Assembly (NCBI GenBank): GCA_019057385.1
Contig: JAHQJS010000005.1
Coordinates: 320,799-384,798, forward strand
Direction of reading: 5' to 3'
DNA: 64,000 bases
DNA from: Candidatus Borrarchaeum weybense
GTDB taxonomy: Archaea; Asgardarchaeota; Sifarchaeia; Borrarchaeales; Borrarchaeaceae
The position numbers were made by a program, and so were the translations under genes. Position 1 is the first letter of the stretch. The number at the start of each line of letters is the position of its first letter. The notes beneath the pieces are model-generated. The model saw only the letters and a list, made by a program, of their open reading frames with translations, had not been told where the DNA came from and did not search any database. Below, in pieces: positions 11,765 through 19,524 of this stretch.

Positions 11765-12035
11765 TCCGATACCGGTTGATCCTGCCGGACCCGACCGCTA
11801 TTGGGATGGGATTAAGCCATGCAAGTTGTGCGCTCCTAGTTATGAAGGAGAGCGGCAAAAAGCTCTGTAACGTGTAGTTAACCTCTCCTCAGGACGGGCA
11901 TACCCTCGGGAAACTGAGGTCAATTCCCGATAGTTGATTAGGCCTGGAATGGTTTTTCTTCCAAAGGTATCTTCTCATGCGAGGATACTACCTGAGGATG
12001 GGACTGCATCTGATTAGGTAGATGGTGGGGTAACG

Positions 12036-12074
12036 TGACCTTTAGTACACTCTTACACACTATCGGTCTTATAC
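12036..12074 (+). other. 16S intron 1 (39 nt, ~E. coli 265/266)
   Basis: BHB GTAA/TTAT, bulges CG|T and AC|G, inner GACC/GGTC; removal restores GGGGTAACGGCCCACC. Confidence 0.9.
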
Positions 12075-12280
12075 GCCCACCATGCCGATAATCAGTACGG
12101 GCTGTGAGAGCAGTAGCCCGGAGATGGAGACTGAGACAACGCTCCAGGGCCTACGGGCCGCAGCAGGCGCGAAACCTCCGCAATGCACGAAAGTGTGACG
12201 GGGCCATCCCAAGTGCCATCCGATAAGGGTGGCTTTTTCTCAGTGTAAAAAGCTGGGCGAATAAGGGGAGGGCAAGGCTG

Positions 12281-12406
12281 ACTGGATTGAGGCAAATCAC
12301 TAACACTATATTCTCGATGAACTATACTTCCCTAAAACGCGGCGCTTATAGTTCATCAAAAACTCTTATGCTTATCAAACTTACAAAACGCCTCATCCAG
12401 GCCTAT
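12281..12406 (+). other. 16S intron 2 (126 nt, ~514/515)
   Basis: BHB AGGC/GCCT, inner CTGGA/TCCAG; restores GGCAAGGCTGGTGCCAGCC. Confidence 0.92.
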
Positions 12407-12614
12407 GTGCCAGCCGCCGCGGTAAAACCAGCTCCTCGAGTAGTCGGGAGTATTACTGGGCCTAAAGCGTCCGTAGCCGGCTTTGTAAGTTCCTGGTCAA
12501 ACCCAGCGGCTTAACCGTTGGCTTGCTGGGGATACTGCAAAGCTTGGGAATCAGAGAGGCCAAGGGTACTAACAGGGTAGGGGTGAAATCCTGTAATCCT
12601 GTTGGGACCACCGG

Positions 12615-12645
12615 ACAGCAGAGAGACACTCTCCTGCTGGGTGAG
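12615..12645 (+). other. 16S intron 3 (31 nt, ~722/723)
   Basis: BHB CACC/GGTG, inner CAGCAG/CTGCTG; restores GACCACCGGTGGCGAAGG. Confidence 0.92.
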
Positions 12646-12716
12646 TGGCGAAGGCGCTTGGCTGGAAGATGTCCGACGGTGAGGGACGAAAGCCAGGGGA
12701 GCGAACCGGATTAGAT

Positions 12717-12747
12717 ACTTGGTGCTAATTATTGTATCATGCTAAAA
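12717..12747 (+). other. 16S intron 4 (31 nt, ~793/794)
   Basis: BHB TTAG/CTAA; restores GGATTAGATACCCGGGTAGTCC. Confidence 0.9.
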
Positions 12748-12872
12748 ACCCGGGTAGTCCTGGCTGTAAACGATGCGAGCTAGGTGTTTGCGTGGCTACG
12801 GGCTATGCAAGTGCCGTAGAGAAGTCGTTAAGCTCGCCGCCTGGGGAGTACGGCCGCAAGGCTGAAACTTAA

Positions 12873-12903
12873 GCAGAGCGAAGATCTACTTCCTCTGGAG
12901 GAA
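12873..12903 (+). other. 16S intron 5 (31 nt, ~914/915)
   Basis: Relaxed BHB, inner CAGAG/CTCTG; restores GAAACTTAAAGGAATTGG. Confidence 0.9.
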
Positions 12904-13040
12904 AGGAATTGGCGGGGGAGCACCACAAGGGGTGAAGCCTGCGGTTTAATTGGACTCAACGCCGGGAAGCTTACCGGGGGCGACAGCTGGATGAAAGCCA
13001 GGCTGATGACCTTGCTGGACTAGCTGAGAGGAGGTGCATG

Positions 13041-13919
13041 AGGTAGTCAGGTCGTTAGCAAAACTTTTCGTCGCTTTCCTTTTCCTCTCAATAACAAAAG
13101 TCTAGATTCTTCCTGATGTCCTTTTTAATTAAAAGGGATAAGTCAGGTTGAATTCAAATGACTATTGGCGACAAAGGAAAGTTTGTTTTACTTAAAACGA
13201 AAAGTCTCATCAATCGCATACGTCAACAGCATAATGAAACAGTTCGTGGTATTTACGAGCATGTCGCAGATCTTGTTAAATGGAATACATTTCGAGACTG
13301 GGCTTATAGAGGCTGGTCACGAATGCCTTTAGAAGTATTTAGGCGACTAAAAAGTAAATACAAACTCAAAGAATCACCAAAAACGGTTACAGAAAAACAA
13401 TGGTATACACTAACTCGAACGAGAGCCGCTGAAATAATGCATAAATGCCACCCTCATAAAGAGTGGCTATCAGAAGCCGCAAAAAAAGGCGGCGAGGCTG
13501 TAAAAGAAAAATATGGTGTTAAATATCTAACAAACCTTTCTGCAAAGGCGATTCACTCGTCATCTAGTTATAGGTATGAAGACGATGATGGAAACAAATA
13601 TCGCAGCCGCTTAGAATTATCCATCGCTAAACTACTCCGAACGCATAATTTGAAGTTTATATATGAACCAGAGATTGAGGGATATGTTCCAGATTTCAAG
13701 ATTAATAATCCCCTCATCGAAGTGTGCGGTTATTTCCGTGATAAAGATTATCTTACTCGACTTAAAGTCAAACTAACTGATTTAGTCAATAAAGGCTGGC
13801 AAATAATTCTAATATGCGAGCCTAGCAAAAAAGCAGTTCTCACTGAAGCAGTTAAAGGTATATCCATAAATGCGATTAAGACAACAGATGAGTTTCGACG
13901 ATTTCTGACTACCGGCAAA
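13041..13919 (+). mobile_element. 16S intron 6 (879 nt, ~1057/1058) carrying a nuclease ORF
   Basis: Inner stem GGTAGTCAG/CTGACTACC with BHB-like bulges; restores GGTGCATGGCCGTCGCCAG. Confidence 0.92.
13158..13919 (+). CDS. Intron-encoded PD-(D/E)xK-like endonuclease (linear reading runs to 13955; circular form ends ...TTGKR*)
   Basis: YRS.LE..IAKLL....KF.YEP.....PDF.....LIEV.G nuclease core; N-terminal HTH-like segment and KGG motif. Confidence 0.75.
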
Positions 13920-14318
13920 GCCGTCGCCAGTTCGTGCCGTGAGGTGTCCTGTTAAGTCAGGCAACGAACGAGACCCCTGCGCCTAGTTGCCAGCGGATCT
14001 CTGCGGAGATGCCGGGCACACTATGCGGACCGCAGCCGATAAGGCTGAGGAAGGAGGGGGCCACGGCAGGTCAGTATGCCCCGAATCCCCCGGGCTACAC
14101 GCGGGCTGCAATGACGGGTACAATAGGTTTCGACTCCGAGAGGAGGAGGCAATCCTCAAAACCCGTCGCAGTTGGGATCGAGCGCTGCAACTCGCGCTCG
14201 TGAACATGGAATCCCTAGTAATCGCGTGTCATCATCGCGCGGTGAATACGTCCCTGCTCCTTGCACACACCGCCCGTCGCTCCATCCGAGTGAGCTTTAG
14301 GCGAGGCGCGTTCCGTAG

Positions 14319-14351
14319 GCAGTATAGGACAACTGTCACATACTGACGGAA
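14319..14351 (+). other. 16S intron 7 (33 nt, tip of helix 44)
   Basis: BHB CCGT/ACGG, bulges AG|G and AA|G, inner CAGTA/TACTG; the host region is variable, so less certain. Confidence 0.75.
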
Positions 14352-17726: not shown

Positions 17727-18384
17727 AGGTGCCCCTAGGTGAGCAGCCTAAGGCGTTTCGGGTGAACTCTGGGCTAGGGAAATCGGCAAATTGGCCCCGT
17801 ACCTTCGGAAGAAGGGGTGCCTACGGTCTTGGGTCGCAAACTTGGGACCGTAGGTCGCAGTGACCAGGAAGTGCTATCTGTTTAATAAAAACATAGCTAA
17901 CTGCTAGCGCGAAAGCGTGTGTACAGTTAGTGAGTCCTGGCCAGTGGCGGTAAGTTAAACCTGAGTTCAATCGGGCGAAGCTCCGCTAAACGCCGGGAGT
18001 AACTATAACTCTCTTAAGGTAGCCAAATGCCTTGCCGGATAAGTACCGGCGTGCATGAAGGGAGCAATGAGCGCTTTACTGTCCCAGCCTGGAACCCGGT
18101 GAACCCACTACCTGGCGAACAGTCCAGGGAGTCCTTGCGGGAAGAGAAGACCCCGTGGAGCTTTACTGCAGCCTGTGCCTGTGCTACGATCGTTGATGCA
18201 GAGCGTAGTCGGGAGCCGTTAATCCCAGCCTCTTCGGGGGTTGGAGTAGGCAACCTTGGAACACCGACCTTCTTTGATTGTATCGCTAACCGGAACGAAC
18301 GTTCTGGAACAAGTGCAGGTGGGCAGTTTCGCTGGGGCGGCAGACCCTTGAAAATGTATCAAGGGTGCCCAAAGGTCAGCTCAG

Positions 18385-18416
18385 AATGCAATTACGTAAG
18401 TGAGTTGCATGAGTAA
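18385..18416 (+). other. 23S intron G (32 nt)
   Basis: BHB GCTC/GAGT, inner ATGCAATT/AGTTGCAT. Confidence 0.9.
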
Positions 18417-18427
18417 GTGGGTCAGAA

Positions 18428-18470
18428 TCAACGGATGAGATTCTGGCTATGACCTTATCAGTTGCTGAAT
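18428..18470 (+). other. 23S intron H (43 nt)
   Basis: BHB TCAG/CTGA, inner CAAC/GTTG; restores GGTGGGTCAGAAATCCACC. Confidence 0.9.
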
Positions 18471-18488
18471 ATCCACCGTAGAGCGTAA

Positions 18489-18519
18489 AGGTGAAGGTGA
18501 CCACCACCTTGCCATGTAG
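18489..18519 (+). other. 23S intron I (31 nt)
   Basis: BHB GCGT/ATGT, inner AAGGTG/CACCTT; restores GAGCGTAAAGGTAAAAGC. Confidence 0.88.
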
Positions 18520-18642
18520 AGGTAAAAGCTGGCTTGACTGTATTCTGACCAGTAAAGAATGCAGGAACGAAAGTTGGGCTTAGCGATCCTCAATACCTTA
18601 TCAGTGGGGGTTTGAGGTGACAGAAAAGTTACCCCGGGGATA

Positions 18643-18756
18643 AATGCGTCAGTTTTGTGAATATAGAAAGTGTGTAGACAAAGCTTAGTAAAGTTGTATG
18701 GGTAATTTAGCTTTGACGATTGTACAACTTTATGAGCGTCTGCGGCGCATTCCCAA
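18643..18756 (+). other. 23S intron J (114 nt, A2450/A2451, peptidyl-transferase centre)
   Basis: BHB GGGA/TCCC, inner ATGCGTC/GGCGCAT; restores GGGGATAACAG. Confidence 0.92.
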
Positions 18757-18872
18757 ACAGAGTCGTCGCGGGCAAGAGCCCATATCGACCCCGCGGCTTG
18801 CTACCTCGATGTCGGCTCTTCCTATCCTCGATGTGCAGCAGCGTCGAAGGGTGGGGTTGTTCGCCCATTAAA

Positions 18873-18904
18873 AAGGAGGCGAAAAATACCTCTCTCCTTA
18901 ATAG
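18873..18904 (+). other. 23S intron K (32 nt, ~2566)
   Basis: BHB ATTA/TAAT, inner AGGAG/CTCCT. Confidence 0.9.
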
Positions 18905-18937
18905 AGGGAACGTGAGCTGGGTTTAGACCGTCGTGAG

Positions 18938-19059
18938 ATCGACTTAGCCGTTATCAAAGGAAACAATCAGGTAACTTAAACCCGATAAGGAAATCCGGTT
19001 ATTTGATTAGTGAGAGGCAGAAATAAGCAAAGTGATGGCAAAGGCTAAGTAGACACGAG
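18938..19059 (+). other. 23S intron L (122 nt, ~2599/2600)
   Basis: BHB CGTG/CACG, inner ACTTAGCC/GGCTAAGT; restores CGTCGTGAGACAGG. Confidence 0.92.
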
Positions 19060-19502
19060 ACAGGTTGGATTCTATCTGCAAGGACTGCCGGTGGTCTGAG
19101 GGTAGGGTGTTCTTAGTACGAGAGGAACGGAACGTCGGAGCCTCTAGTGTACCAGTTGTCCGAAAGGGCAGAGCTGGGCAGCCACGCTCTAACCGATAAG
19201 AGCTGAAAGCATCTAAGCTCGAAGCGGGTCCCGAAAAGAGACCACCAATCACCAACAGAGGAGTTAGGGTGACCGTCCGTAACTGTTGGGGACGAGGACT
19301 CCAGGAAAACACTGGTTTGATAGAGCTGAGGTGTAAGTGTCGAGGGTACAGAGATGGTACTCTTAGTATTGTACACTCGCCTAAATCCCTCCAACCTCTT
19401 GGTCATGTACATAACCGTCTCTTCGGAGATAGTTGTGTCGTGATTAATGTTGTTGGGCCGAGGCACTCAGCCTGCAGCCACTAAACGTCCGAGTGTTCAG
19501 AC

Positions 19503-19524
19503 AGAACCCCGGTCCATGCAAAAC
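19503..19524 (+). repeat. 22-bp direct repeat, copy 1 (23S 3' processing-stem strand)
   Basis: AGAACCCCGGTCCATGCAAAAC, identical at 21656-21677. Confidence 0.9.

Follow-up and report, generated by a model that had tools for sequence, protein, structure and literature searches.

The ribosomal RNA (rRNA) operon analyzed in this work lies in a 64,000-nucleotide (nt) stretch of contig JAHQJS010000005.1 of the archaeon Candidatus Borrarchaeum weybense (hereafter the window; coordinates count from its first base and refer to the plus strand unless otherwise indicated). Gene limits were established with the Rfam covariance models SSU_rRNA_archaea (RF01959) and LSU_rRNA_archaea (RF02540), both matched over the full model. 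The 16S rRNA gene occupies 11769-14434 (1223 bits) and measures 2666 nt against a model of 1478 positions, and the 23S rRNA gene occupies 14595-19398 (2311 bits) and measures 4804 nt against 2987 positions. One copy of each is present in the window's own genome (G000), which comprises 4.18 Mb in 8 contigs and is scored as 100% complete. Both genes are interrupted by inserts that split universally conserved core sequences of the organism's only rRNA operon, and we present the evidence that these inserts are very probably, for the most part, archaeal bulge-helix-bulge (BHB) introns, which the transfer RNA (tRNA) splicing machinery would remove.

Inserts were called in a MAFFT alignment against eight uninterrupted Asgard 16S genes, and the same approach was followed for the 23S gene. 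The 16S gene contains 7 inserts (39, 126, 31, 31, 31, 879 and 33 nt; 1170 nt in sum) and measures exactly 1496 nt once these are removed. The 23S alignment gave 14 inserts, comprising 10 with a clear BHB, one with a weak BHB that bears an open reading frame (ORF), an ambiguous one at the site of expansion segment 9 (ES9), and two expansion hairpins. As judged from the sequence, the putative introns number 17 to 19, namely 7 in the 16S gene plus 10 firm, one loose and one doubtful in the 23S gene, and their summed length is 2832 nt including the ES9-site insert and 2715 nt excluding it. A preliminary description of this DNA had proposed 7 inserts and a spliced length of about 1496 nt for the 16S gene, 12 inserts for the 23S gene and about 2.7 kb in total; these figures agree with ours, the 23S count falling within the 11 to 12 that we accept. 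The GC content of the introns is 0.38, compared with 0.53-0.58 in the exons and 0.37 in the genome. No second genomic copy of any intron was found in G000, and the introns showed no resemblance to one another beyond chance matches of 8-13 nt; therefore, they are not recent copies of one element.

A BHB scanner was used to evaluate the junctions. Its pattern runs from four exon-end bases through a 3-nt bulge and an inner helix to the complement of those four bases, with another 3-nt bulge at the end, and the insert length was set to the alignment-derived value; 3000 random position/length pairs in the window served as control. Scores of at least 16 were obtained for 14 of the 21 inserts and for 2.2% of the controls, and scores of at least 18 for 11 of the 21 and 0.4%, respectively. 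One common design, consisting of a 4-nt exon-end helix, 3-nt bulges and an inner hairpin, recurs in 18 inserts, with A as the first base of the 3' bulge in 17 of them; the central helix is fully paired (4/4) in 14 and pairs at 3/4 positions in 4. According to these data, 17 inserts (7 in 16S and 10 in 23S) fit the BHB design well, and the 1034-nt 23S insert does so loosely. A cut after the second bulge base regains universal rRNA sequence at every site, as the preliminary description had anticipated in stating that removal restores conserved rRNA. The MAFFT boundaries are 1-4 nt off at 16S sites 722 and 914 and at 23S sites 2328 and 57x, and the BHB-derived cuts, confirmed by relatives, were used instead.

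These relatives, which share the genus, class or phylum of G000, are a same-genus 16S fragment (G003; 94% identity to the spliced G000 sequence over positions 1-764), a further 16S gene (G012; 87% identical), and a same-class 23S fragment (G005) whose colinearity with the G000 23S extends over spliced positions 780-2983. The predicted spliced product is identical or near-identical to these sequences at 7 of 7 junctions in the 16S and at 10 in the 23S. In E. coli numbering, the 16S sites are ~265, 514, 722, 793, 914, 1057 and ~1457, with 514 fixed by eye from the GTGCCAGC motif. G003 is uninterrupted at 265, 514, 722 and 793, and its sequence corresponds exactly to the BHB product at three of them, with one flanking base off at 265; G012 is uninterrupted at 722, 793, 914, 1057 and ~1457.

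The first 16S intron (39 nt, site ~265, 12036-12074) displays the full hBHBh' motif, with a 4/4 central helix between a 6-bp outer and a 4-bp inner helix. The second (126 nt, 12281-12406) lies between positions 514 and 515, lacks an ORF, and has a 4/4 central helix with 6-bp inner and 4-bp outer helices. Three mini-introns of 31 nt follow: at 722 (12615-12645; central 4/4, inner 6 bp), where G003 reads CACCGG/TGGCG, that is, the BHB cut, one base away from the MAFFT boundary; at 793 (12717-12747; central 4/4, inner 5/6); and at 914 (12873-12903; central 3/4, inner 5 bp), which splits the 907-926 primer site and whose removal regains the universal ACTTAAAGGAATTGG. The 879-nt intron at 1057 (13041-13919; central 3/4, inner 9 bp) contains a putative endonuclease ORF and is also found at the same site in the genomes G016 and G025. 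The last one (33 nt, 14319-14351) is located at ~1457, near the tip of helix 44 (central 4/4, inner 6 bp, outer 5/6).

Covariation was assessed across families for one intron, that at 16S-1057, where the 9-bp inner helix is kept in three Asgard families by two-sided changes (GGTAG/CTACC, GGATG/CATCC and GGCCT/AGGTC). In addition, the central helix at 16S-514 changes from GCCT to GTCT in a related metagenome contig (L061, described below), with the pair retained as G-U.

The 23S inserts classed as introns map near E. coli positions 570s, (630s), 751, 787, 1085, 1617, 2299, 2310, 2328, 2450, 2566 and 2599, the first two being rough placements, and several of them fall within the GTPase-associated centre or the peptidyl-transferase region. 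None of the ten junctions from 751 to 2599 carries an insert in G005. The first mini-intron (30 nt, ~570s, 15258-15287) interrupts the conserved CCGTCTTGAAACACGG and has a 4/4 central helix, a 5/6 inner helix and AAA bulges on both sides. The mini-intron at 751 (35 nt, 15642-15676; central 4/4, inner 4 bp) is matched in G005 by the predicted junction. The 1034-nt insert at 787 (15715-16748) carries a LAGLIDADG ORF, and its boundary slides within a repeated AATC; in its best motif, the central helix (GACC/GGTA) is paired at 3/4 positions, both bulges read AAT, and a 33-nt hairpin sets apart the 7-bp helix of the intron. By comparison with the uninterrupted G005 sequence, it is clearly an insertion.

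Further downstream, a 21-nt micro-intron at 1085 (17055-17075; central 4/4, inner 5 bp) interrupts the GTPase-associated centre, and a 51-nt intron is found at 1617 (17676-17726; central 4/4, inner 6 bp). Three introns are then clustered at 2299 (32 nt, 18385-18416; central 4/4, inner 6 bp, outer 3 bp), 2310 (43 nt, 18428-18470; central 4/4, inner 4 bp, outer 5 bp) and 2328 (31 nt, 18489-18519; central 4/4 with two G-U pairs, inner 5 bp), leaving micro-exons of 11 nt (18417-18427) and 18 nt (18471-18488) between them. Over this cluster, the G005 sequence agrees base for base with the spliced product past the 2299 and 2310 junctions and shows slight differences near the 2328 junction; a register of 28 nt for the 2328 intron was rejected, as its product would be 3 nt longer than the relatives. 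The 114-nt intron at 2450 (18643-18756; central 4/4, inner 6 bp) lies in the peptidyl-transferase ring, and inserts at 2449/2450 occur in four other Asgard genomes. The series is completed by a 32-nt mini-intron at 2566 (18873-18904; central 4/4, inner 6 bp, outer 3 bp) and a 122-nt intron at 2599 (18938-19059; central 4/4, inner 5/6), which may be compared with a 106-nt insert at ~2596 in G016.

Three further 23S inserts bear on the question of whether the additional sequences are simply kept in the mature rRNA as expansion segments and never removed, given that large expansion segments are transcribed and kept in Asgard rRNAs (PMC7594248). Two of the inserts fit that description. The 19-nt GC-rich hairpin at 15359-15377 (GC 0.63), which adjoins the ES9 site, has no BHB (score 9); it was rejected as an intron and called an expansion. 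The 55-nt insert at 17163-17217, located at a hairpin tip, has no BHB either (score 8), and the same-class G005 has a hairpin of similar length with similar flanking motifs at this place, so that by sequence comparison it is classed as a class-level expansion segment; a 56-nt BHB drawn for it was rejected, since it breaks a strong hairpin of which G005 holds the equivalent. The third, the 117-nt insert at the ES9 site (~630s, 15401-15517), could be either an expansion segment or a relaxed-BHB intron. An intron is favoured by the 3/4 central helix, by the helices on either side of it (6 and 4 bp) and by a length after splicing like that of relatives; an expansion is favoured by the rRNA-like GC content of 0.51 (compared with about 0.39-0.40 in other mid-sized introns), together with inserts in G012 and G022. 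Considering that ES9 is enlarged and retained in other Asgard rRNAs (PMC7594248), this insert may be a retained expansion segment instead of an intron.

For the other 18 inserts, retention is very improbable. They interrupt conserved single-stranded or core sequence and not variable hairpin tips, as exemplified by the 515, 790 and 915 regions and 1057 in the 16S, and by 1085, 2450, 2566 and 2599 in the 23S. Moreover, the congener at 94% identity lacks such inserts, the motif is rare at random positions, and two of the inserts hold protein genes. As a separate observation, the 17163-17217 hairpin and its G005 counterpart (L036, about 770-860) represent a hairpin specific to Sifarchaeia, about 55-60 nt long, which caps a helix near E. 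coli ~1180; the flanking motifs of the two are similar (GAAAAC at the 5' side and GAGTA at the 3' side), the hairpin sequence differs, and this may be a structured element, e.g., a kink-turn-like loop.

A different explanation for the interrupted genes would be that the operon is an assembly chimera or a dead pseudogene, with the working rRNA genes missing from the assembly. The genome is metagenome-derived with an estimated contamination of 7%, rRNA regions are often misassembled, and rRNA genes are lacking in most metagenome-assembled genomes (MAGs) of the same genus. Nonetheless, the exons are intact and give full-length Rfam matches, and the genome contains no other 16S or 23S gene despite its completeness score. 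Between 72 and 94% of the sampled words of the window were recovered in three DNA sequencing runs (from one study, possibly the source). Independent of the assembly, a Joint Genome Institute (JGI) metagenome contig (L061; Ga0180437_10003113), analyzed over 5168 nt that include the first ~955 spliced 16S positions and 88-92% identical to G000, carries identical 39-nt and 31-nt introns at sites 265 and 722. Furthermore, the 1057 intron and its ORF are conserved in two complete single-contig or near-complete genomes from other families. In view of these data, an assembly artifact or pseudogene appears extremely improbable. A protein-level query for contigs in spliced form, made with a spurious rRNA ORF (18027-18413), recovered the protein of the window itself (100%) and otherwise only sequences of other archaea with at most 69% identity, and wetland metatranscriptomes contain 24-32% of the window's sampled words, shares that are uninformative on splicing.

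The L061 contig also differs from G000 in intron content. It has no intron at 793, where it shows the exact predicted junction, as G003 and G012 do; it has a 675-nt intron at locus 908, which was rejected as a shared 914 intron because it lies 6 nt upstream of that site; and at 514 it carries a 792-nt intron with a LAGLIDADG-like ORF. Since this intron shares both the site and the two ends of the 126-nt intron of G000, the latter looks like a deletion derivative of an ORF-bearing intron. Intron presence or absence thus varies among genomes that are 88-94% identical, and the differing content of G000 and L061 indicates rapid intron turnover. A 38-nt insert near 16S position ~480 (about 3120-3157 in the reverse complement of L061), absent from G000 and G003, was noted as a candidate mini-intron.

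The two large introns of G000 each contain a protein gene. The ORF within the 1034-nt 23S intron (15823-16719, 298 aa) encodes a predicted homing endonuclease of the LAGLIDADG type (Pfam LAGLIDADG_3, 4.1e-6, above the curated cut-off), with homologues at 27-30% identity in 16S introns of G025 and L061. The ORF of the 16S-1057 intron (13158-13955, 265 aa) shows no credible similarity to any Pfam family, LAGLIDADG included; its hit to phrog_945 ('endonuclease'; 1.5e-5) represents a weak similarity to phage endonuclease families, and full-length homologues (64-66% identity) occur within 16S introns of two genomes from other Asgard families, G016 and G025. In an AlphaFold2 (AF2) model, the C-terminal domain reaches a predicted local distance difference test (pLDDT) of 78-87 over most of its length, a moderate confidence, and the best Foldseek match of this domain is the catalytic domain of I-Bth0305I (3r3p; E 2.4e-3, template-modelling score 0.66 by target, 17% identity), a weak match followed by Bax1, Vsr and restriction enzymes. 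From this model, the product looks like a nuclease of the PD-(D/E)XK fold, and we annotate the ORF as a putative homing endonuclease. I-Bth0305I (PDB 3r3p) is itself a PD-(D/E)XK homing endonuclease encoded in an intron; its host intron, however, is a phage group I intron, whereas here a BHB intron encodes a nuclease predicted from a moderate-confidence model. The occurrence of this ORF in three Asgard families suggests a homing enzyme type that we have not seen described for BHB introns.

Regarding the extent of these ORFs, 13158-13955 overruns the 3' splice site by 36 nt into the 16S exon; therefore, the protein could be translated only before splicing, from the precursor, or else from a circular intron, in which case its C-terminus would differ. 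The G025 homologue also overruns, with a similar exon-encoded tail, and that of G016 ends just before the junction. A fragmentary 16S gene of G025 (C142, L060) holds three intron ORFs (1144-1833, 2095-2730 and 3264-4061), two of them LAGLIDADG-like and one PD-(D/E)XK-like.

Group I introns are known in archaeal rRNA genes, often with LAGLIDADG genes (PMC6125680), and the 1034-nt intron has no canonical BHB, which raises the question of whether the large inserts might be group I or group II introns that splice themselves. The covariance models of these two groups gave no match above the gathering threshold within 9000-22000. The ORF of the 1034-nt intron is flanked by 108 nt on its 5' side and 29 nt on its 3' side, where a ribozyme core would not fit, and the 879-nt intron has a good BHB as well as covariation; hence, self-splicing is a barely credible explanation for either of them.

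The host encodes the enzymes that BHB splicing would require. The NMD3 protein encoded in the window shares 95% identity with its counterpart in a 'Candidatus Borrarchaeum yapensis' MAG and 65% with the one in Ca. Sifarchaeum marinoarchaea; on this basis, the organism is assigned to the Asgard archaea, in Sifarchaeia/Borrarchaeaceae, in keeping with the Asgard-like host suspected in the preliminary description. That description had also proposed identifying the architecture of the tRNA-splicing endonuclease EndA, and two paralogs were found in G000 (C4:663429-664055 and C5:195817-196488), each with PF01974 and PF02778. Paralog 1 is closest to the alpha subunits of Aeropyrum pernix and Sulfolobus tokodaii (5.6e-42), keeps the Tyr/His/Lys triad, and aligns with gaps of 1-2 residues only, also across the crenarchaeal specific loop. 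In the heterotetrameric EndA of Aeropyrum pernix, this loop broadens the substrate range to relaxed motifs. In paralog 2 the catalytic His is missing, and among solved structures those from Methanopyrus and Methanocaldococcus are the most closely related to it. Two genes for the ligase RtcB (PF01139) are present. Most likely, the catalytic alpha subunit and the non-catalytic paralog would assemble into a heterotetrameric endonuclease, and a loop-bearing enzyme of this predicted assembly and specificity would fit the many junctions that lack an outer helix. Of the crenarchaeal (alpha-beta)2 enzymes (A. pernix 3p1z, 3ajv; S. tokodaii 2cv8), it is the alpha subunit that paralog 1 resembles; the beta subunit is short, whereas paralog 2 of G000 is full length, has both domains, and is Methanopyrus/Methanocaldococcus-like.

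Given the motif, the match of its products to uninterrupted relatives, the covariation, the enzymes and the sole rRNA operon, we infer that the inserts are spliced as follows. In the pre-rRNA, four exon bases, located two bases upstream of the 5' splice site, would pair with four intron bases located two upstream of the 3' splice site. The intron-internal hairpin would stack on this 4-bp helix, placing each splice site in a 3-nt bulge. In both bulges, cleavage by the tRNA-splicing endonuclease would follow the second base, after which RtcB would join the exons, with the intron freed, probably as a circle. Every ribosome would probably need about 18 such cut-and-rejoin steps. The two large introns, with their LAGLIDADG and PD-(D/E)XK genes, probably spread by homing at the DNA level.

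Cleavage could also occur with the pieces remaining unjoined, in which case EndA would cut the bulges and the ribosome would work with fragmented rRNA. Fragmented rRNAs occur in some bacteria and protists. Here, this would mean 8 pieces of 16S and about 12 of 23S, two of which, in domain V, would measure 11 and 18 nt; the genome has two copies of RtcB, which ligates ends of exactly this kind, and in the archaea studied, ligation follows BHB cleavage of rRNA introns (PMC4496867). We consider such fragmentation very unlikely, and joined exons as the probable outcome.

Several observations weigh against the splicing of all inserts as BHB introns. The 1034-nt 23S-787 intron has no canonical BHB; the central helix is paired at only 3/4 positions at 16S-914, 16S-1057 and the 23S ES9-site insert; and an outer exon-exon helix is present at few junctions, so that most motifs are of the relaxed type. 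Relaxed motifs would in turn need a broad-specificity enzyme, which is itself deduced from protein sequence. The tip of the hairpin that contains the 16S-~1457 insert, absent in G012, is variable, and this insert might also be an expansion. The statement of the preliminary description that each insert has BHB-type junctions stands for the set, whose scores are far above those of the controls, but not, in canonical form, for the 1034-nt insert, and it is doubtful for the 117-nt ES9-site insert.

As for the remaining features of the operon, the 16S-23S spacer measures 160 nt and contains no tRNA. The 5' arm of the 16S processing stem (11733-11755, inverted repeat I2) pairs with 14468-14490, and that of the 23S processing stem (14535-14552, inverted repeat I14) with 19544-19561, a 3' arm that falls just outside the end coordinate of the operon as first delimited. 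Folded together, the leader and the spacer reach -53 kcal/mol and form processing stems of the usual kind. No 5S gene was seen after the 23S gene (19399-19600), where no dedicated 5S search was made. Upstream of the operon there are three tRNA signals, at 8368-8460 (minus strand), 9781-9858 and 10209-10262. The first has an insert after the anticodon loop, and its anticodon could not be named by ARAGORN; the third is missed by ARAGORN, and its Rfam match covers model positions 10-63 only. Both look like intron-interrupted tRNA genes.

The intron load was compared with that of other Asgard archaea in a sample of 151 genomes for the 16S gene, and in 37 full-length genes from 81 genomes for the 23S gene. 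Most full-length Asgard 16S genes span 1470-1560 nt, and the long ones are those of G085 (3594 nt), G000 (2666 nt), G016, G114, G087 and G028. The 16S of G085 has 8-9 inserts, more than G000, with sites 514, 722 and 793 common to both. The 23S gene of G000 is the longest of the 37, followed by genes of 4136 and 3910 nt; among eight 23S genes that were dissected, that of G016 has 5 inserts and the rest have 1-2. G000 is thus extreme for the 23S gene and for the whole operon, and multi-intron rRNA genes occur in several Asgard families. The load that looked extreme in the preliminary description is upheld as such in these terms, but not for the 16S gene taken alone, where G085 surpasses it. The G085 gene (C71:619-4212, minus strand, L055), from another Asgard family, has its inserts at E. 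coli ~159, 514, 722, 793, 909, 1397, 1439 and 1519. At shared sites the insert sizes are very different, as at 722, with 703 nt in G085 and 31 nt in G000.

BHB introns in 16S and 23S rRNA genes have been described in Thermoproteales, Desulfurococcales and Caldiarchaeum (Jay & Inskeep 2015, PMC4496867), and the G000 introns resemble them in the junction motif, in their location at highly conserved rRNA sites, and in the use of locus 722. Both sets also show two size classes (hairpin-only introns below 50 nt and ORF-bearing introns above 700 nt), a patchy distribution among close relatives, and neighbours only a few bases apart (901/908 and 1205/1213 in that catalogue). In contrast, the catalogued hosts are thermophilic crenarchaea, whereas here the host is an Asgard archaeon of 37% GC from sediment; the intron GC content is 0.57 there and 0.38 here; one ORF here is of the PD-(D/E)XK type and not LAGLIDADG; and one 16S holds 7 introns and one 23S holds 10-12. 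The 13 archaeal 16S loci of the catalogue are 374, 548, 722, 781, 803, 901, 908, 919, 978, 1093, 1205, 1213 and 1391 (PMC4496867). Only 722, correctly named as a known locus in the preliminary description, is matched, and the other six 16S sites of G000 fall outside these loci, in line with the possible novelty suggested there for several sites. In the open-access text searched, we found no account of an archaeal rRNA operon with as many introns. The intron type is known, while the lineage, the number and most of the 16S sites appear to be new.

A second known system is that of the heavily interrupted tRNA genes of Asgard archaea (Valentin-Alvarado 2024, PMC11291895; bioRxiv 10.64898/2026.10.13.758758). 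The resemblance lies in short hairpin introns, non-canonical positions and a lineage trend, and the splicing machinery is presumably the same as here. These papers are confined to tRNA genes, and the passages searched contain no mention of rRNA introns, in contrast with the rRNA hosts described here, in which two introns carry endonuclease genes.

A more far-reaching scenario may be formulated, according to which about 18 protein-catalysed splicing events would take place, including the joining of the 11-nt and 18-nt micro-exons, and the ORF-less introns (21 to about 50 nt), instead of being remnants of homing elements, would still be spreading at the RNA level across rRNA, tRNA and messenger RNA. 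This could happen, for instance, if the endonuclease/ligase reaction ran backwards and its product were then reverse-transcribed or recombined into the genome. We regard this scenario as unlikely; if true, introns would have proliferated throughout a prokaryotic genome, and this in the archaea most closely related to eukaryotes.

With regard to the detection of these archaea, the 793 and 914 introns split the sites of the widely used 806R and 926R primers, and the 722 and 1057 introns lengthen amplicons (for primer positions, see the table in PMC4496867); therefore, standard 16S surveys probably miss or undercount this lineage. The fast turnover and the pair of 126-nt and 792-nt introns at 514 make the group a good system for studying intron gain, decay and loss. 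Taken together, these results indicate that the heavy intron load of Asgard tRNA genes extends to the ribosomal RNAs, such that each ribosome of this organism would depend on the tRNA-splicing enzymes.

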